NCBI GenBank assembly: GCA_947477885.1
Contig: CANJUD010000003.1
Coordinates: forward strand, 215,774 to 279,773
DNA length: 64,000 nt
Origin: Bacteroidota bacterium
Lineage (GTDB): Bacteria; Bacteroidota; Bacteroidia; UKL13-3
Direction of reading: 5' to 3'
In this document: positions 2,981 through 51,945 of the stretch, one piece after another
How positions within the stretch are numbered: the stretch's first letter is position 1
How the letters are laid out: each line of letters starts with the position of its first letter
Program-made: the position numbers and the translations under genes
Notes under the pieces: model-generated
Seen by the model: the letters and a program-made list of their open reading frames with translations, nothing else
Told to the model about the DNA's origin: nothing
Database searches by the model: none

Positions 2981-3102
2981 AATACGTGTTATATAATACT
3001 TAGATATGCAAAATTAAACGATTTGTTCATATTAAAAACAAAAGCTATTGTTATTACGTGGACATCCTAGTCTGTTGTGTCTGAAAAAATGCTCATTGTG
3101 GG

Positions 3103-3248
3103 AATTACGAATTTTCAATTACGAATTACGAATAGTGAGCATCAAGTGGTTGGTCATGGTTCGACTACGCTCACAACCACAAACACAGGCAGTCGCATAA
3201 CCATCTAGCATCAGCCAATTCGTAATTGAAAATTCGTAATTCGTAATT
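3103..3248. repeat. MITE-like palindromic element: ~31-bp terminal inverted repeats built from AATTACGAA units around a ~80-bp core containing GGTTCGACTACGCTCAC
   Basis: Left arm aattacgaattttcaattacgaattacgaat (3103-3133), right arm aattcgtaattgaaaattcgtaattcgtaatt (3217-3248); core motif tggttcgac(t/a)(c/a)cgctcac recurs at 15455 and 30876; partial copy of arm at 12203-12245. Confidence 0.6.
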
Positions 3249-3250
3249 GA

Positions 3251-4732
3251 TTAGTCCATTGCTTTCAACTCGCTCACCAATTTGGTAAGGGCTGACTTAG
3301 CATCGCCGAATAGCATGGAGTTTTTTGGATTATAGAACAGTTCGTTTTCAATACCTGCATAACCCGCATTCATACTACGTTTGTTCACTATAATATTCTT
3401 GGCATTCTCTACATCGAGAATAGGCATACCAAATATGGGAGAAGCGGGATCATTATGAGCAGCAGGATTTACCACATCATTTGCTCCTACAACCAGTACA
3501 ACATCTGTGTTTGAAAATTCAGGATTGATTTCTTCCATCTCAACCAACTTGTCATACGACACATTTGATTCGGCCAATAGTACATTCATATGACCCGGCA
3601 TACGACCAGCAACTGGGTGTATTGCGTATTTAACTTCCACACCGCGTTCTTCTAATATAGTCTCCAATTCATGTATTACATGTTGTGCTTGAGCTACTGC
3701 CAATCCATATCCAGGAACTATAATAACTTTCTTTGAATAATTCATTAAAACAGCAGCATCTGTTATAGAAATTTCTTTGATATTCCCTGTAAGTTCACGA
3801 CCTGCAGCAGCACCCTTACTGCCAGCACCAAATGCTCCAAATATAACATTGCTTAGTGGGCGGTTCATTGCTTTACACATAACCAAAGTTAATAATGTTC
3901 CAGCAGAACCAACTAATATTCCACCGGTTAACATAGCTTTGTTATTATACATAAATCCACCGCACGCTGCGGCTAGTCCAGTAAATGAGTTTAGTAAAGA
4001 TATTACAACGGGCATATCTGCACCACCGATTGGTAGTACGAACATGACACCATATAATAATGCAGCTGCAAATAATAAATACACATGCATGTTACCTTCT
4101 ACATTTCCGTTCACAATTAAGAATGCATATACAAACAAACCAAGCATTAATATATTATTGGTAATATTATATTGTGGCAAACGGATAGGTTTGTTTAAAG
4201 TGCCATTTAATTTAGCCCAAGCTATAATAGAACCTGCAAAAGAAACAGAACCAATGACAAGACCTGCCATTATCATTGCAAGTTTTGCAGTATGACTCAT
4301 GCCACCTTGGTGTGCCATATTTTTTAACATTTCAACTAGGCCAGATAAATCCATTCCTCCTTCTGGTGTAACAGGCATAACTTGATGCCCCATGTGTTGA
4401 AATTCAATCAATGAAATTAATGCCGCACAAGCACCACCCATACCATTAAATATAGAAACGAGTTCGGGCATTTTTGTCATTTGTACTTTTTTGGCAGTCA
4501 TCCAACCCGCAATGGTTCCAAGACCTATAGCAGATAGAATTAAAGTATATATTATTGGTTGAACTTTTTCATCGTGGATGATGATAGTTCCGAGTATGGC
4601 CAAGGTCATTCCGAAGCATGCAATAAGATTCCCTTTTCTAGCAGTTGCTGGATGGGATAACATTTTAAGTCCTATTACGAAAGTAACAGATGCAACTAAG
4701 TAAATGATGTCGAGTAAATATTGTGTGTTCAT
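3251..4732 (-). CDS. pntB: NAD(P) transhydrogenase subunit beta
   Basis: 493 aa polytopic N-terminal membrane domain plus C-terminal NADP(H)-binding dIII domain (GYGLAVAQAQH...VVGANDVVNPAA...); typical PntB N-terminus MNTQYLLDIIYLVASV. Confidence 0.9.
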   Translation of the reverse strand: MNTQYLLDIIYLVASVTFVIGLKMLSHPATARKGNLIACFGMTLAILGTIIIHDEKVQPIIYTLILSAIGLGTIAGWMTAKKVQMTKMPELVSIFNGMGGACAALISLIEFQHMGHQVMPVTPEGGMDLSGLVEMLKNMAHQGGMSHTAKLAMIMAGLVIGSVSFAGSIIAWAKLNGTLNKPIRLPQYNITNNILMLGLFVYAFLIVNGNVEGNMHVYLLFAAALLYGVMFVLPIGGADMPVVISLLNSFTGLAAACGGFMYNNKAMLTGGILVGSAGTLLTLVMCKAMNRPLSNVIFGAFGAGSKGAAAGRELTGNIKEISITDAAVLMNYSKKVIIVPGYGLAVAQAQHVIHELETILEERGVEVKYAIHPVAGRMPGHMNVLLAESNVSYDKLVEMEEINPEFSNTDVVLVVGANDVVNPAAHNDPASPIFGMPILDVENAKNIIVNKRSMNAGYAGIENELFYNPKNSMLFGDAKSALTKLVSELKAMD

Positions 4733-4740
4733 GGTGTAAT

Positions 4741-5197
4741 TTCTAAATTCTAAATTCTAATTTCTAAATTTATTTTGTTTGATTATTGAGTGCTTTTTTA
4801 TATATAGCTCCAAAAATGGTTTGAATTTCTTGGGCTTCTTTAATTAATTCAAGTCTTGATTGATCGACAGTTGTATTTTCGATATCCAACTATTTCAACC
4901 ATAGTATCGACTCTTTCGTTTCTTTTTTACATATTCTAATTTTCATCAAAAAATCCTTTTCACCTAATTTCTCGTTGGCCTCTATATAATTTGCAGCTAC
5001 TGAACCAGACGATCTTACTAGTTGTTTTACATCTTCTTTATTCCAAATATTTACTTCTATCTTCTTTACAAAAGCTCTAATGCTTTTAGCAAAATAAAAT
5101 GTCCTTTCTTCTAAATTATATATCTTTTTATTTTCGCTTTCAATTTGAGAATGTAGCATATCGAAAATTAGAATTTAGATATTAGAATTTAGAATTT
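4741..5197. mobile_element. Inverted-repeat-flanked insertion carrying a four-helix-bundle (TIGR02436-like, formerly 23S rRNA IVS) gene
   Basis: ~30-bp imperfect inverted repeats made of TTCTAAA heptamers: ttctaaattctaaattctaatttctaaattt (4741-4771) and aaaattagaatttagatattagaatttagaattt (5162-5195) bracket the single gene exactly. Confidence 0.5.
4770..5159 (-). pseudogene. four-helix-bundle protein gene interrupted by an in-frame TAG (4890-4892); ORF track shows only the N-terminal 89 aa
   Basis: 89-aa product (…NLEERTFYFAKSIRAFVKKI…RSSGSVAANYIEANEKLGEKDFLMKIRICKKETKESILWLK) matches the first three helices of the family. Reading through the TAG in the same frame adds LDIENTTVDQSRLELIKEAQEIQTIFGAIYKKALNNQTK, the expected fourth helix, ending at TAA 4770-4772. 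Confidence 0.55.
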
Positions 5198-5201
5198 TTT
5201 G

Positions 5202-5510
5202 CTATTTTTTCTTCTTAAACATTTCCAACATTCTGTCAGTAACAACGAAACCTCCCACAACATTTAGTGTTCCAAGCACTACAGCTAAAAACCCTAAAAC
5301 TAGTGAAAGAATGTTGTCAGGGTCAGTATGTAACATTACATATATAGCACCAATAATTACAACACCATGTATCGCGTTAGCGCCTGACATCAATGGCGTG
5401 TGCAGCACTGCGGGCACTTTTCCTATTACTTCTATACCCACAAATACCATGAGTATAACGATGTAAAACATTTGTATGTTGTTACCGATAAAATTTATTA
5501 CTGAATTCAT
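5202..5510 (-). CDS. pntA: NAD(P) transhydrogenase subunit alpha part 2 (small membrane subunit)
   Basis: 102 aa, three predicted TM helices, typical PntAB sequence …IVILMVFVGIEVIGKVPAVLHTPLMSGANAIHGVV…; sits between pntAA and pntB. Confidence 0.85.
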   Translation of the reverse strand: MNSVINFIGNNIQMFYIVILMVFVGIEVIGKVPAVLHTPLMSGANAIHGVVIIGAIYVMLHTDPDNILSLVLGFLAVVLGTLNVVGGFVVTDRMLEMFKKKK

Positions 5511-5513
5511 ATT

Positions 5514-5903
5514 TTATTTATTTTCTATTTTATTAATTAAGTCTTCTATATCTCTTCTAAGTTTTGGAAAATCATTTTTAATAGTATAATAAACCGTTGA
5601 ATAATCGACTCCAAAATATTCATGGATTAATATATTTCTTATGCCTACTATTATTCTCCAATCTATCTGTTTATTTTCTTGTTTTAATTCTTCTGTTATT
5701 CTGGCTGATGCTTCTCCTATGTTCTCTATTAATTTTTGCAAGGCCAACTTAAGTATGTAGTCTTTTAGAAACTCTTCTTCTGCTAATTCTCCAAGAATAT
5801 CAATAGAATCTTGGGAGTACTGAAGAATATGTCTAAGTCTTGCTATATCACCCAGTTTTCCTTTCATATATAAGTCTTTTTTCTTCGTGAATATATGGTG
5901 CAA
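5514..5903 (-). CDS. hepT: HepT-like (DUF86) toxin of HepT/MNT type II TA system
   Basis: Rx4HxY motif (RNILIHEY) near C-terminus; ~115-129 aa; overlaps upstream MNT gene (alternative start at 5867 gives 20-nt overlap). Confidence 0.75.
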   Translation of the reverse strand: MHHIFTKKKDLYMKGKLGDIARLRHILQYSQDSIDILGELAEEEFLKDYILKLALQKLIENIGEASARITEELKQENKQIDWRIIVGIRNILIHEYFGVDYSTVYYTIKNDFPKLRRDIEDLINKIENK

Positions 5904-6150
5904 TATATTTTGACAATCCTTTATCTGACAATAAATCTATTTCTAATTTCAAATCATTAGAAAGTTTTAATTTCATATTTGCAAAATCAAAAAGAGATAC
6001 TTTAGCTAACTCATCCAACTCGACCAAAACATCTAAATCACTTCCAGCCACTTCTTCGTTTCGTGCGTACGAACCAAACACATAAGCCTTTTTCACGGGC
6101 TGTGTTGCAAAAAAGTTCTGTAATTTCAATTGCTGCTCTGCTGTTATCAT
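5848..6150 (-). CDS. mntA: MNT-family nucleotidyltransferase antitoxin
   Basis: GSx10DxD motif (FGSYARNEEVAGSDLDVLVE); ~100 aa; likely start MITAEQQ at 6148-6150, 2 nt after pntAA stop; upstream extension in ORF track overlaps pntAA and is rejected. Confidence 0.75.
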   Translation of the reverse strand: MITAEQQLKLQNFFATQPVKKAYVFGSYARNEEVAGSDLDVLVELDELAKVSLFDFANMKLKLSNDLKLEIDLLSDKGLSKYIAPYIHEEKRLIYERKTG

Positions 6151-6152
6151 AA

Positions 6153-7256
6153 TTATGATTTCAATATATTCCCACCATGACAAATCAAAGTGCCCTTCGT
6201 AATCTCTTCTTCCATTTCCCATTTAAAGCCATCTTTGGTAGCAAGGTATTGTAAAAAAGTACTGAGGTTTTTTGCGTATAGTTCGCTGGCATTGGTGGCA
6301 AGTGAACTGGGCAAGTTTGTAGTACCAATTACATATACTCCATGCTTAAATACGATTTCATCGGCTTTTGAGATTTCGCAATTGCCGCCTTGTTCGGCTG
6401 CCATGTCCACTATTACTGAGCCGTACTTCATCATTTTCACTTGCTCTTCGCTGATTAATAATGGAGCTTTACGGCCTGGAATTAATGCGGTTGTGATTAC
6501 TAAATCAGCTTGCGATAAAGATTTGTTTACGGCTTCTTTTTGTTTCTGCTGATATTCTTCCGAAACTTCTTTGGCATATCCTCCTTCGGCTTTCACGCCA
6601 TCTGATTTTACTTCTATGAATTTGGCTCCCAAACTTTCTGCTTGCTCCTTGGTTTCTGGTCTCACATCTGTTGCTTCTACTTGTGCACCAAGGCGTTTGG
6701 CAGTTGCTATTGCTTGCAATCCTGCTACACCAATTCCAAAAATCAAAACTTTTGAAGGTGTAATTGTTCCCGCTGCAGTCATCATCAGTGGGAAAATTTT
6801 GGTCATGTGATTTGCTCCCAACAACACCGCTTTGTATCCCGCCAAATTGCTTTGACTACTTAAAACGTCCATACTTTGTGCTTTTGAAATACGTGGAATG
6901 GCATCCATTGAAAATGATGAAACACCTTTGCCATTAAGCTTCTGCACTAATTCAGAATTTGACAAGTGGTACATCAAACTGAAAGTGATTTGTCCCGATT
7001 TCAATTGAGAAATCTCATCATCGCCAAATGGGTTCACCTTGGCCACCACATCTGCCTCACTAATCAGTTGGCTTTTGTCAGTAACCACTTTTGCTCCCGC
7101 AGATTCGTACAATGGGTCTTCGAATGATGAGGCTGTACCCGCACCACTTTCGACTAAAATTTCGAATCCGTTTTTGATTAACTGCCCTGCCACAGTGGGC
7201 GATAGAGCTACCCGTTTTTCTCCGGGCTTTGTTTCTTTGAGTATTCCTATTTTCAC
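6153..7256 (-). CDS. pntA: NAD(P) transhydrogenase subunit alpha part 1 (dI, alanine dehydrogenase/PNT domain)
   Basis: 367 aa; Rossmann GxGxxG (IFGIGVAGLQA); N-terminus MKIGILKETKPGEKRVALSP typical of PntAA. Confidence 0.9.
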   Translation of the reverse strand: MKIGILKETKPGEKRVALSPTVAGQLIKNGFEILVESGAGTASSFEDPLYESAGAKVVTDKSQLISEADVVAKVNPFGDDEISQLKSGQITFSLMYHLSNSELVQKLNGKGVSSFSMDAIPRISKAQSMDVLSSQSNLAGYKAVLLGANHMTKIFPLMMTAAGTITPSKVLIFGIGVAGLQAIATAKRLGAQVEATDVRPETKEQAESLGAKFIEVKSDGVKAEGGYAKEVSEEYQQKQKEAVNKSLSQADLVITTALIPGRKAPLLISEEQVKMMKYGSVIVDMAAEQGGNCEISKADEIVFKHGVYVIGTTNLPSSLATNASELYAKNLSTFLQYLATKDGFKWEMEEEITKGTLICHGGNILKS

Positions 7257-7485: not shown

Positions 7486-7920
7486 ATGAAAAAAATATTT
7501 ACTTCTGCATTGATATTGTCAACTATCCTAGTTCTATCTTGCTCTAAGACAAAAACTTTAGCTAACAGATTAGAAGGAACTTGGAATATTGATAAACGGG
7601 AAACTGTTAACGGTGCCCAACAAAAATCGGATGCCAATATTGGAACTTTTGAATTTAAAAGTGATGGAACCGGGACTATGACTATCAAAACTGTTTATAA
7701 TAATTATACAAATACCTCTGTAAATACTTTTTATTGGAGCAATACAGCAAGCACACTCACACTTATTATGGGAAACAGCATCAAATATTTCCAAGTGCTT
7801 GCCAACGAATCGAAGAAACAAGTATGGGAAGAATCCTTCACTAATACCAATTCGAGCAGTAGCGGAGGAACTCCGACCACTACTACTAATTCTGAGAAAT
7901 ATACTTTGAGTAAGAAATAG
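7486..7920 (+). CDS. lipoprotein, lipocalin-like, hypothetical
   Basis: Signal peptide with lipobox (ILVLSCSK); 144 aa; T/S/N-rich tail. Confidence 0.6.
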   Translation: MKKIFTSALILSTILVLSCSKTKTLANRLEGTWNIDKRETVNGAQQKSDANIGTFEFKSDGTGTMTIKTVYNNYTNTSVNTFYWSNTASTLTLIMGNSIKYFQVLANESKKQVWEESFTNTNSSSSGGTPTTTTNSEKYTLSKK

Positions 7921-8045
7921 TTGGGGGAGTAGAAAGACTAAAGACTTTCGTTCCGTCGGCTGATCCCGAATAAGATTCGGGAAGACGGCAATTGATACTT
8001 TATACCTTATACTATCTACTTTATACTTTTGTCTTTCCTCTTTTG
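7921..8045. repeat. Intergenic repeat element, inverted copy of the element at 22545-22650
   Basis: tatactttataccttatactatctactttatac is the reverse complement of agtataaagtagatagtataaggtataaag at 22556-22586; also the hairpin tcccgaataagattcggga, shared with 30825-30845. Confidence 0.55.
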
Positions 8046-8056
8046 TCTTTCCTCTT

Positions 8057-8803
8057 TTATTTCCTATGTATCACACCCGCAACTGCTTGTGCGGTAGGCA
8101 TAATGACGATATCATTTATATTTACATGCGGAGGTCGGTTGATGACGAATAGGATTGCTTCGGCTACGTCAGTTCCTACCAAACTTTCAAAACCTAGATA
8201 TACTTTTTTGGCTCGTTCTTCATCGCCATGGAAACGAACAATAGAAAACTCGGTTTCTACAGCACCTGGATGTATAGCTGTTACTTTTATTGGGTGCGGC
8301 AATAAATCTATACGCATCGTTTTGTTAAGCATGTCTACTGCGGCTTTTGTTGAGCAATAAACATTTCCATTAGCATAAGCTTCTTTAGCGGCTATAGAGC
8401 CTATGTTTACAATATGTCCACTGCCCCTCTCCACCATCGCCGGAAGGACTGCACGTGTTATATATAATAGTCCTTTTATATTGGTATCTATCATAATTTC
8501 CCAATCATCGATATCGCCTTTGTCAATGGTGCTCATGCCACTTGCAAGGCCCGCATTGTTTATGAGTACATCTATATGCTTCCATTCGCTTGGCAAATTT
8601 TGTATGGCACCAAAAACAGCAGCTCGGTCTCTCACATCCAACTTTATTATCATAGTTTCTGTAGGCAAATGCTTTGCAAGTTGCTGTAATCTATCTTCTC
8701 TGCGGGCTGCAAGTATGAGTCGGTAACCTTCCTTGGCCAATAGTATTGCGGTGGCCATTCCTATTCCTGATGATGCCCCTGTGATTAATGCTGTTTTGTT
8801 CAT
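8057..8803 (-). CDS. SDR family NAD(P)-dependent oxidoreductase
   Basis: TGASSGIG cofactor motif at N-terminus; YxxxK (YCSTK) catalytic motif; 248 aa. Confidence 0.85.
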   Translation of the reverse strand: MNKTALITGASSGIGMATAILLAKEGYRLILAARREDRLQQLAKHLPTETMIIKLDVRDRAAVFGAIQNLPSEWKHIDVLINNAGLASGMSTIDKGDIDDWEIMIDTNIKGLLYITRAVLPAMVERGSGHIVNIGSIAAKEAYANGNVYCSTKAAVDMLNKTMRIDLLPHPIKVTAIHPGAVETEFSIVRFHGDEERAKKVYLGFESLVGTDVAEAILFVINRPPHVNINDIVIMPTAQAVAGVIHRK

Positions 8804-10764: not shown

Positions 10765-10878
10765 GACATTGCACGAATCCGTCATGCTGAACTTGTTTCA
10801 GCATCCATAGGAAATGGAAGAGATGCTGAAATAAATTCAGCATGACTTAGCGGACAGCATGACGCGGCGGGCAGCATG
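10765..10878. repeat. Cluster of CAGCATG-based hairpins (two tandem stem-loops tgctgaa/ttcagca)
   Basis: gtcatgctgaacttgtttcagcatcc … gatgctgaaataaattcagcatgac … gacagcatgacgcggcgggcagcatgtcg. Confidence 0.45.
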
Positions 10879-15367: not shown

Positions 15368-15480
15368 CAAATTGTATGTTTTATATAGTCGAAGTGCCGC
15401 CCTGAGCGCAGTCGAAGTGCCGCCCTGAGCGAAGTCGAAGGGTGGTTCGTGGTTCGACTCCGCTCACCATCTCACAACCC
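15368..15480. repeat. Intergenic repeat element: 22-bp direct repeat agtcgaagtgccgccctgagcg x2 plus core ggttcgactccgctcacca
   Basis: cgaagtgccgccctgagcgcagtcgaagtgccgccctgagcgaagtcgaagggtggttcgtggttcgactccgctcaccatc; gagcg…cgaagtgaagtcgaaggg also at 51900-51940. Confidence 0.55.
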
Positions 15481-23022: not shown

Positions 23023-23079
23023 GTGGTTTATTTTTCTTGCTTGCAAACTTAGCTAAAATTATGCCGAAAAAAAAACTCA

Positions 23080-23170
23080 AGTAGTCAGTGGTCAGTAAAC
23101 AGTGGTCAGTGCCATTCGGCGTCAGTATGCAGGCGTCAGCTACTGTTTACTGTTTACTGACCACTAGCCC
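23080..23170. repeat. Heptamer-based palindromic repeat element (TAGTCAG/TGGTCAG/TAAACAG arms around ggcgtcag core)
   Basis: gtagtcagtggtcagtaaacagtggtcagtgccattcggcgtcagtatgcaggcgtcagctactgtttactgtttactgaccactag: arms are reverse complements. Confidence 0.6.
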
Positions 23171-23197
23171 GTATTTTTGCACATCAATAACACGACC

Positions 23198-28029: not shown

Positions 28030-28043
28030 GCAAAGTTAATATA

Positions 28044-28074
28044 GGATTCGGGATTCAGGATTCAGGATTCGGGG
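28044..28074. repeat. Tandem heptamer array GGATTCG-GGATTCA-GGATTCA-GGATTCG
   Basis: Directly read; reverse-complement heptamers CCCGAAT x3 occur at 31048-31070. Confidence 0.6.
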
Positions 28075-28119: not shown

Positions 28120-28290
28120 TTTAATATTTCGTCCCTACGGGACTTATGCCGTGTTGGACGTTTCTCGTTTCTACCAATATTTCGTCCCGATGGGACTTTA
28201 ATCGACATATACATAGTCCCATCGGGACGAAATATTGGTAGAATTAAGATTTGAGTTAGTATTAAAGTCCTGTAGGGACGCAATATTGAA
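28120..28290. repeat. Nested palindromic element: four ~25-bp units AATATTTCGTCCC-NN-GGGACT (2 forward, 2 inverted)
   Basis: units at ~28124, ~28176 (forward) and ~28213, ~28263 (reverse complement); unit 2 vs 3 nearly perfect 28-bp inverted repeat separated by 14 nt; each unit internally palindromic (gtccc..gggac). Confidence 0.65.
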
Positions 28291-29047: not shown

Positions 29048-29200
29048 GCCGCGAAAATAATGGTTAATTATTAATTATTAATGGTTAATGGTTAATGCCA
29101 TGCGGCAGTGTTGCGTTGCGACATTAACCATTAACCATTTATAATTCATCATTTATAATTCATCATTTATCCTTCATCATTAACCATTATTTTTGCCGCC
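29046..29200. repeat. Heptamer-based palindromic element (GGTTAAT arms around gccatgcggcag core; TTCATCA/TTTATAA units)
   Basis: ggttaattattaattattaatggttaatggttaatgccatgcggcagtgttgcgttgcgacattaaccattaaccat…; core gccatgcggcag also at 30850; ggcattaaccattaaccat also at 51869. Confidence 0.6.
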
Positions 29201-30805: not shown

Positions 30806-31072
30806 GATTCTGGACTCAGAACTCAGTCCCGAATAAGATTCGGAAGGGGCCATGCGGCAGATAGAAGTCAGTCATGGTTCGACTCCGCTCACCACGGCAT
30901 CCGTAATCAGGCGTCAGCCAAATCGTAAATCGTAAATCGTAAATCTTGCGTCAGCCCCCAAATCCCGAGGGATGACACTGTTATATAAGAGGAAAAGCAA
31001 AAAACAAAAACCCCAACGGGGTGATATTATATAAACTGGCGTCAGCCCCGAATCCCGAATCCCGAATCCCAT
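30805..31072. repeat. Composite intergenic repeat region: GGATTCT/GGACTCA units, cccgaataagattcgg hairpin, gccatgcggcag and ggttcgactccgctcacca cores, (AAATCGT)x4, (CCCGAAT)x3
   Basis: All read directly; shares separate modules with elements at 3103, 7950, 15455, 28044, 29075. Confidence 0.6.
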
Positions 31073-39663: not shown

Positions 39664-39745
39664 AGTAGTCAGTAAACAGTGGTCAGTAATCAGTGGCTGA
39701 CGCCGTATGGCACTGACTACTGTTTACTGACCACTGTTTACTAAA
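39664..39745. repeat. Heptamer-based palindromic repeat element (AGTCAGT/AAACAGT/GGTCAGT arms; gctgacgccgtatggcactgac core)
   Basis: agtcagtaaacagtggtcagtaatcagtggctgacgccgtatggcactgactactgtttactgaccactgtttact. Confidence 0.6.
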
Positions 39746-51860: not shown

Positions 51861-51945
51861 AGCCGTATGGCATTAACCATTAACCATTTTTACCCTGAGC
51901 AGCCCGCACTGAGCGACAGCCGAAGTGAAGTCGAAGGGAACCATT
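51861..51945. repeat. Intergenic repeat element (ggcattaaccattaaccat arm; gagcg…cgaagtgaagtcgaaggg core)
   Basis: Shares motifs with 29046-29200 and 15368-15480. Confidence 0.5.

Follow-up and report, generated by a model that had tools for sequence, protein, structure and literature searches.

Why should a toxin-antitoxin (TA) pair and a small four-helix-bundle (4HB) gene lie inside an operon for the proton-translocating transhydrogenase, and does either have anything to do with the enzyme? The question is raised by the pnt operon of a freshwater Bacteroidota bacterium, which is located on the minus strand of contig CANJUD010000003.1 within a stretch of 64,000 nucleotides (nt), here called the window, and in which the gene order is pntAA, mntA, hepT, pntAB, the 4HB gene, and pntB. 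The original prediction described a pnt operon interrupted by a TA pair and a 4HB gene and proposed that transhydrogenase expression would be tied to toxin and antitoxin dosage. Our analysis favors a different reading, to which we assign a probability of about 0.62: the inserts would be promoter-less cassettes in a normal split pnt operon, playing no part in Pnt function and being swapped by recombination in the flanking pnt genes. From upstream to downstream, the locus comprises the following features.

6153..7256, minus strand: pntAA, the dI domain of the alpha subunit, 367 amino acids (aa), GTG start (PF05222 and PF01262)
5848..6150, minus strand: mntA-like gene for a minimal nucleotidyltransferase (MNT), the putative type VII antitoxin, 100 aa, with GSx10DxD intact
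5514..5867, minus strand: hepT-like gene for a HEPN RNase, the putative toxin, 117 aa from the ATG at 5867, with RNILIHEY as its Rx4HxY motif
5202..5510, minus strand: pntAB, the membrane part of the alpha subunit with four transmembrane segments (4TM), 102 aa, stop codon TAG (PNTB_4TM, 7e-32)
5164..5197, no strand: 5' (upstream) inverted-repeat arm of AAATTCT-type heptamers, between the pntAB stop and the 4HB ATG
4770..5159, minus strand: gene of the 4HB/23S rRNA intervening sequence (IVS) protein family, with an in-frame TAG (PF05635, TIGR02436)
4738..4771, no strand: 3' (downstream) inverted-repeat arm, overlapping the 4HB stop codon, from repeat search and fold
3251..4732, minus strand: pntB, the beta subunit, 493 aa (PF02233, 589 bits; PNTB, 1e-176)
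3102..3248, no strand: second heptamer inverted repeat, of GAATTAC units, directly after the pntB stop, 26 nt, 100% complementary

Open reading frames (ORFs), Pfam, and NCBIfam confirm the originally proposed order and coordinates of the six genes. The co-directional pntAA (AlaDh_PNT_N/C at 4.6e-69; NF006942 at 419 bits, with a cutoff of 383 bits), 4TM alpha-C piece, and PNTB beta subunit form a split three-gene proton-translocating transhydrogenase. The cassettes have a G+C content of 0.26 to 0.30, compared with about 0.33 to 0.44 for the pnt genes. The hepT reading frame (5514-5903) opens with TTG at 5903, and the ATG at 5867, which the public gene call also takes, is most likely the start. 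Searches of the window with tblastn and hidden Markov models (HMMs) yielded no further MNT, HepT, or 4HB copy.

Three sister contigs (L096, L097, and L184) are syntenic with the window, and the comparison with two of them (L096 and L184), with flanks 85 to 100% identical to those of the window, reveals an exchange of the TA pair within an otherwise conserved operon. Contig L096 has a pntAA with 83 to 97% nucleotide identity to that of the window, yet its 91-aa MNT and 121-aa HepT are unrelated to the window pair at the DNA level. The identity is 30 to 57% over positions 6144-5727 and 50 to 70% over the hepT motif and 3' part (5726-5547); starting at position 5546, it recovers to 77 to 98% and stays there across pntAB, the 4HB element, and pntB. 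On the left, the breakpoint is placed within the final two codons of pntAA, which specify the same residues in different letters (AAATCA in the window and AAGAGT in L096); on the right, it falls in the last ~45 nt of hepT. L184 matches the window at 98 to 100% in segments of pntAA, pntAB, pntB, and the downstream region, yet has the L096-type TA pair; this contig also lacks the 4HB element, having a 32-nt spacer instead. The cargo of the operon looks interchangeable and dispensable for Pnt, because near-conspecific genomes carry a different TA pair or no 4HB element in the same operon.

Between L096 and L184, the TA pair is under purifying selection, with ratios of nonsynonymous to synonymous divergence (dN/dS) of 0.04 for MNT and 0.13 for HepT. 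The synonymous divergence (dS) of the TA cassettes is 0.23 to 0.42, in comparison to 0.72 to 0.85 for the flanking pnt genes, the cassette values resting on small counts of 11 to 22 synonymous differences. As the cassette dS lies below that of the flanks, the comparison suggests a more recent sharing of the cassettes than of their surroundings, which would indicate exchange by recombination in the conserved pnt genes. Allelic replacement of a TA cassette in a fixed slot within an operon appears to be new, being not described in the literature that we searched, where we also found no specific account of TA modules inside metabolic operons.

We considered whether the arrangement could be an assembly chimera and rejected this. 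An identical PntAB was read on 24 contigs, all but the one shown being listed as similar places, mostly with the same neighbor proteins, and the sister contigs are syntenic. The window also matches contig CANJLS010000003.1 of the metagenome-assembled genome GCA_947475885.1. For annotation, this means that operons of metagenome-assembled Bacteroidota genomes that look interrupted can be genuine rather than misassembled.

The operon is surrounded by DUF8428, M23 peptidase, and SDR genes. The window and L184 both have a 144-aa gene on the plus strand (7486-7920), between an SDR gene and pntAA, that L096 lacks. Downstream of the DUF8428 gene, L096 has a GIY-YIG gene where the window has the M23 peptidase. 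Both differences represent further turnover of small genes near the operon.

The second insert was originally described as a 4HB gene at 4770-5159. The family assignment stands, with matches to PF05635 (23S_rRNA_IVP; 1.3e-9, 38.6 bits, cutoff 33.8) and the TIGR02436 four helix bundle family (3.5e-16, 59.4 bits, cutoff 24), while the gene is not intact: an in-frame TAG at 4890-4892 (codon 90) splits the frame into an 89-aa ORF and a 39-aa remainder. The intact 129-aa ortholog (P0024), which is 95% identical and matches a Bacteroides structure (PDB ID 2RLD), has TTG at the TAG codon. The truncated 89-aa product (P0028) is found on 17 contigs and the TAG is therefore not an assembly error. A reassignment of the stop codon was rejected, as pntAB itself ends in TAG. 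Judging from these sequences, the interruption is a recent nonsense mutation (TTG to TAG).

Together with its flanks, the ORF forms an element of about 460 nt, a PF05635 ORF inside a heptamer inverted repeat that the original prediction had overlooked. The two arms (4738-4771 and 5164-5197) are 85% complementary over 34 nt and 96% over 26 nt, and the AAATTCT-type heptamer occurs 6 times where 1.1 occurrences are expected. The upstream arm stops 5 nt short of the 4HB ATG and the downstream arm 5 nt short of the pntB ATG, and the repeat closes the 4HB ORF in both the minimum free energy and the centroid RNA folds (z = -3.3). A flanking-repeat score, measuring ungapped complementarity and having a 99th percentile of 12 in controls, reaches at least 15 in 13 of 22 4HB genes at other loci versus 0.5% of 597 control ORFs. 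The arm units vary from locus to locus (AAATTCT, AAATTCG, AAATCCG, and GATTTAGTGAATTAGTGATT), with the two arms of each locus staying complementary, as a stem under selection would be expected to do. The ORF and its inverted repeats are gained or lost together, as is seen at the empty sites in L018 and L184.

The closest database relatives of the window 4HB gene lie mostly in the same pnt spacer (P0024, P0035, P0046, and P0063), with at least one located elsewhere (P0026). Among pnt-resident 4HB proteins, the identity tracks that of PntB (Spearman 0.51, p = 2e-6), the pairs of 4HB and PntB identities including 95/97, 94/97, 88/92, 82/92, and 73/80%. Between the window and L096, the 4HB gene has a dN/dS of 0.095 and a dS of 0.24, in comparison to 0.60 to 0.94 in the flanks, suggesting that the element is younger than its flanks in this pair of genomes. 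The element looks like an old resident of the operon, kept by selection in many lineages and lost in others. Classical transposition is not supported, as the comparisons of filled with empty sites show no target-site duplications. There is neither a reverse transcriptase nor a template/variable repeat (TR/VR) pair beside the 4HB gene, the direct repeats there being heptamers only, and the Rfam search indicated no rRNA anywhere in the window. In the literature searched, we found no specific account tying four-helix-bundle/IVS proteins to heptamer inverted repeats beside their genes, nor a description of IVS-type PF05635 elements, with arms of inverted heptamers, as long-term residents of an mRNA operon; the latter appear to be new.

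How far do the inserts extend beyond this clade? We compared 80 Bacteroidota pnt loci with one genome per species (851 kb), and used an independent metagenome sample of 80 loci as a second estimate of frequency only, its best PntAB identity being 83% and the window's own clade being unsampled in it. All three pnt genes are found in 72 of the 80 related species loci, most of the remainder being cut by a contig end, and the median spacers are 46 nt between pntAA and pntAB and 39 nt between pntAB and pntB. The insertion is lineage-specific, as the comparison with related genomes suggested by the original prediction confirms: in the nearest species representative (L002, PntB 84% identical), both spacers are short and empty of either insert. 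On the PntB tree the inserts are scattered, each having close relatives without the insert.

The original prediction called the arrangement unusual, which holds for the TA pair and not for the 4HB gene. An MNT/HepT pair between pntAA and pntAB was found in 2 of 71 other species (L065 and L079) and in none of 73 metagenome pntAA-pntAB spacers. The pntAB-pntB spacer contains a PF05635 gene in 6 of 77 other species representatives (L003, L006, L039, L048, L060, and L079) and in 8 of roughly 72 to 77 metagenome loci, so that about 10% of the sampled Bacteroidota pnt operons carry one there. The pntAA-pntAB spacer holds such a gene in L015 and in one metagenome locus, and a fragment in L003. Neither is the arrangement unique, since the inserts recur at other loci and L079 carries the full arrangement of the window. 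In an HMM scan of all ORFs of the species sample, all but two of the 4HB genes found lay within pnt spacers, and every MNT/HepT pair was located between pntAA and pntAB. Fisher tests support an association with pnt spacers for both inserts (4HB, p = 7e-5; MNT/HepT, p = 0.009), these values being overstated through shared ancestry, the events not being independent.

Other small genes occupy the same spacer in some genomes. A conserved 120-aa family without a Pfam match is located, in one clade of pnt operons, between pntAA and pntAB (L011:5187-5549, L024:5306-5668, L038:5275-5637, and L042:676-1041); it has the motif FY..L..F.QEAK.C.YWYERSLEYE and no flanking inverted repeats. The hhalign comparison with the 4HB family gives a probability of 79% over 27 columns only, a suggestive likeness that does not settle the family as a divergent 4HB. 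A different, unannotatable 122-aa ORF is found in the pntAA-pntAB spacer of L006 (4771-5139), which has its 4HB gene in the second spacer.

The junctions in the window are as tight as originally described. The pntAA TAA (6153-6155) is followed after 2 nt by the MNT ATG at 6150, hepT, counted from its ATG at 5867, begins 20 nt before the MNT gene ends (stop 5848-5850), and the hepT TAA (5514-5516) is followed after 3 nt by the pntAB ATG at 5510. In all four TA-bearing pnt operons (window, L065, L079, and L096) the TA pair occupies the spacer almost exactly, with junctions of -4 to +5 nt, including several ATGA overlaps. From the start of pntAA to that of pntB, the coding strand has no copy of the Bacteroidota -7 motif TAnnTTTG, and no terminator-like sites were found between the operon genes. 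A scan for sigma-70 promoters and terminators found sites no more often than in shuffled sequence and carries no information for Bacteroidota. The strict -33/-7 pattern of this phylum has no match for the operon, the region upstream of pntAA included; the absence of an internal promoter is thus weak evidence, because the operon's own promoter is also undetected by the strict motif. Since the junctions are tight or overlapping, the six genes are likely to form one transcript, as originally proposed, and the comparable junctions in L065, L079, and L096 and the lack of TAnnTTTG inside the operon 5' of pntB support this.

The TA pair itself belongs to the HepT/MNT families by domain and motif. MNT matches the NTP_transf_2/Polbeta families PF01909 (9e-12) and PF18765 (6e-13) and aligns to PDB ID 1WOT (E value, 5e-7), while HepT matches the HepT-like family PF01934 at 4.2e-22. 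Both catalytic motifs are intact on alignment, bearing out the original identification: the translations read G26-S27-x10-D38-L-D40 in MNT and R77-NILI-H82-E-Y84 in HepT, the latter being invariant in the family alignment. A direct phmmer search of the window HepT against PDB gave no match and the family profile was required; it aligns the motif to RNIAVHDY of the Shewanella oneidensis HepT (PDB IDs 5YEP and 6M6U), placing the acceptor Tyr on Y104. In the characterized family, MntA poly-AMPylates the Tyr of Rx4HxY (Y104 in S. oneidensis HepT), keeping the RNase inactive, and the motifs Rx4HxY and GSx10DxD define Class I HepT/MntA modules, which have been tested as toxic and neutralizable in bacteria and archaea (PMC7641770). 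With scores below the cutoffs of the NCBIfam equivalog models NF047751 (HepT_toxin) and NF047752 (MntA_antitoxin), the window pair is a family member and not an equivalog of the characterized pair.

The window HepT belongs to a sparse subfamily of 23 homologs, the next best being 48% identical, which includes the slot occupants of L065 and L079. The HepT proteins of L096 and L184 belong to a separate, abundant Bacteroidota subfamily of 1611 homologs. The original prediction placed HepT/MNT pairs usually in defense islands, which fails for this HepT group: only 1 of 6 sampled contexts of its relatives is a TA cluster (ParE, PIN, and MazE), and in the other 5 the relative points the same way as adjacent housekeeping genes, the distance ranging from a 4-nt overlap to 66 nt. 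These five relatives lie upstream of argS-ileS, 1 nt upstream of carA, 14 nt downstream of an ADH-MaoC gene, in a 4-nt overlap with a CCG-domain gene, and 22 nt after a radical-SAM gene. Lodging against core genes seems to be a habit of this HepT group.

From these observations, we propose the following course of events for cassettes without a role in Pnt function. The whole unit would be transcribed from a promoter upstream of pntAA, and mntA, hepT, and pntAB would be translationally coupled. By analogy with the characterized family, MntA would keep HepT AMPylated and its RNase inactive. The 34-bp stem in the polycistronic RNA should be a substrate of RNase III, the cut separating the 4HB-pntB part from the upstream part. 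More speculatively, the premature TAG may also keep ribosomes from reaching, and thereby opening, the stem just ahead of the pntB start. The cassettes would persist because only a precise deletion is harmless and an imprecise one damages an operon under strong selection, and the TA pair may also be retained by addiction. Homologous recombination in the conserved flanking pnt genes would spread the cassettes or replace them between related lineages.

Several results weigh against this proposal. The 4HB gene is under purifying selection across PntB divergences of 65 to 97%, and the label of selfish hitchhiker may undervalue it. The comparisons of L015 with L018 and L013, of L039 with L037, and of the window with L184 revealed neither a target-site duplication nor a recognizable footprint of transposition. 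The same rare HepT subfamily is found in the same spacer in three deeply separated lineages (window, L065, and L079), which, like the restriction of MNT/HepT pairs to that spacer, could instead reflect selection for the association with pnt. An internal promoter, within pntAA or hepT, could exist, the strict motif missing the operon's own promoter too. The scores of MNT (44.5 bits) and HepT (34.7 bits) are below the NCBIfam equivalog cutoffs of 60, and HepT has no PADLOC match.

The alternative that retains most weight, although we consider it rather unlikely, is an anti-phage defense slot, in which the pntAA-pntAB spacer would be a small hotspot exchanging HEPN/MNT abortive-infection modules under phage pressure and the pnt operon would supply only constitutive transcription and conserved recombination arms. 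The presence of two unrelated MNT/HepT alleles in one slot on near-identical backgrounds, combined with a low cassette dS, is typical of the balancing or diversifying turnover of defense loci, and MNT matches the PADLOC candidate PDC-S09 (4e-17 for the window MNT and 2e-25 for that of L096). On the other hand, the HepT lacks such a match and no other defense genes are found near the TA pair in the window neighborhood. The defense slot is compatible with all observations, and it largely overlaps the reading as functionally unconnected cassettes, differing solely in the selective agent.

An interpretation that goes further, and that we hold to be unlikely, takes the PF05635 genes with their heptamer arrays as autonomous "mRNA intervening sequences" processed by RNase III, and the pntAA-pntAB spacer as a dedicated HEPN/MNT exchange slot. 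The 4HB protein would then bind its own repeat stem, controlling the processing and translation of the downstream pntB, the Bacteroidota pnt operon would be a long-standing host, and HEPN/MNT modules would cross species via the pnt arms. If true, this would be a new way for small accessory genes to colonize and travel through core operons, and it would provide a first functional handle on the IVS/Avd-like protein family outside diversity-generating retroelements (DGRs).

A functional coupling, in which the operon would have recruited the TA pair, and possibly the 4HB gene too, for its regulation, is closest to what was originally proposed, and we give it little credence. Here, the RNase activity of HepT or the ATP use of MntA would tune pntAB and pntB or link growth arrest to the redox state. 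The related HepT subfamily shared by the window, L065, and L079 between pntAA and pntAB would fit such a role, as would the absence of the pair elsewhere in about 850 kb of pnt loci (p = 0.009), the conserved translational-coupling junctions, and the purifying selection on the TA genes. However, the pair is missing from 69 of 71 other species representatives and from 73 of 73 metagenome loci, a pair of a different subfamily substitutes for it in near-conspecific genomes with pnt unchanged, and the closest HepT relatives adjoin unrelated genes (argS, carA, CCG-domain, and radical-SAM). The dosage tie between the TA pair and transhydrogenase expression finds no support, as near-conspecific genomes swap the TA pair or lose the 4HB element, and a tie to redox metabolism is likewise not supported by the sequence comparisons.

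Very improbable, finally, is that MNT and HEPN form a two-subunit housekeeping nucleotidyltransferase, with MNT as the catalytic subunit, HEPN binding the substrate, and the 4HB gene being an ordinary small gene of the operon; the scores under the NCBIfam MntA and HepT cutoffs and the relatives that often lie tight beside housekeeping genes, atypical of TA islands, would agree with it, whereas the pair retains both TA-specific motifs intact, among them the Tyr of Rx4HxY that is AMPylated, and presence/absence and allelic replacement in close relatives are unlike a housekeeping enzyme.

For TA biology, cassettes swapped within a normal pnt operon would describe a type VII pair that lives without a promoter region of its own, that appears coupled into the operon of an obligate enzyme, and that is replaceable allele for allele between near-identical genomes. 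The slot offers a natural system for studying how TA pairs are retained and exchanged and whether core genes serve as recombination arms. To our knowledge, the function of the PF05635 family has been uncharacterized since IVS ORFs were first described. The layout of rRNA intervening sequences is here linked to copies in mRNA spacers (about 20 loci examined), making the function of the family testable in a simple operon.

The repeat directly after pntB consists of a perfect 26-nt inverted repeat of GAATTAC heptamers (3102-3133 and 3217-3248) around an 89-nt, G+C-richer loop (fold z = -5.3). It is 98 to 100% conserved in L184 and not conserved in L096. Probably it forms the hairpin at the operon's 3' end or else represents a relative of the 4HB element that has no ORF. 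Scanned in full against Rfam at gathering thresholds, the window gave no match, the heptamer hairpins and the 89-nt loop included.

Heptamers are also common elsewhere in the window. Intergenic 7-nt tandem arrays are located at 17-47, 7995-8058, 23067-23178, 28043-28070, 29048-29199, 30920-30945, 31047-31070, 39664-39742, and 51871-51888, with units of AGTAATC, ATACTTT, AGTGGTC, TAATGGT, AAATCGT, CCCGAAT, and others, and several inverted pairs form hairpins. Similar arrays occur in pnt spacers of other Bacteroidota without a 4HB gene, for example, in L037. Three further repeat families were observed. A palindromic element (GTCATGCTGAACTTGTTTCAGCATC / GATGCTGAAATAAATTCAGCATGAC) at 10781-10846 recurs near-verbatim in the pntAA-pntAB spacer of the distant L013 (5620-5650), which suggests a family of elements common to Bacteroidota that resemble repetitive extragenic palindromes (REP-like). 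A cluster of near-perfect palindromes of 22 to 29 nt (TTCTACCAATATTTCGTCCCGATGGGACT and variants) at 28123-28288 represents another repeated hairpin family of the genome. At 15387-15440 lies a tandem repeat of a 23-nt unit (AGTCGAAGTGCCGCCCTGAGCGA, 2.3 copies); its words ACTTCGACT and TCGCTCAG also occur in the hairpin that L002 has in its empty pntAA-pntAB spacer (5505-5530), and it may represent another dispersed repeat family.

Among known systems, the TA pair most directly invites comparison with HepT/MntA of S. oneidensis (SO_3166/SO_3165; PMC7641770). Both have the MNT gene upstream of and overlapping the HEPN gene, combine PF01909 with PF01934, and carry GSx10DxD and Rx4HxY, with the acceptor Tyr aligned to Y104. 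The window pair differs in having no upstream intergenic region of its own, lying 2 nt and 3 nt from genes for enzyme subunits, in scoring under the equivalog cutoffs with a HepT of a sparse subfamily, and in occupying a slot that holds alternative alleles in sister genomes.

The 4HB element resembles the intervening sequences of 23S rRNA known from Coxiella burnetii and Leptospira (PMC4990558). The C. burnetii IVS is 428 to 444 nt long, has a 28-bp stem of terminal repeats and an S23p ORF undergoing reductive evolution, and is excised by RNase III (PMC4990558). Shared with it are the size (about 460 nt here), the terminal inverted-repeat stem (34 nt here) around a single PF05635 ORF, the proneness of this ORF to decay, by a nonsense mutation here and reductive evolution in Coxiella, and the sporadic distribution. 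The window element differs in its location in the pntAB-pntB mRNA spacer rather than in helix 9, 25, or 45 of 23S rRNA, and in its arms, which are tandem AAATTCT-like heptamers. Moreover, the Bacteroidota ORF is under purifying selection and diverges in step with its host operon, and the RNase III cleavage is a prediction here. The DGR accessory protein bAvd (PMC10053308) has the PF05635-like four-helix-bundle family and fold class in common with the 4HB protein, whereas the window gene adjoins pntAB and pntB, with neither a reverse transcriptase nor a template/variable repeat pair.

The heptamer arms, in turn, recall the TAACTGA intergenic tandem repeats of Beggiatoaceae, Cyanobacteria, and Bacteroidetes, for which a post-transcriptional role has been proposed (PMC4679880). 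In both cases, short arrays of 7-nt units lie a few nucleotides upstream of start codons. The units in the window (AAATTCT, GAATTAC, and others) are different, and they form inverted pairs that bracket an ORF or fold into hairpins, instead of direct repeats alone.

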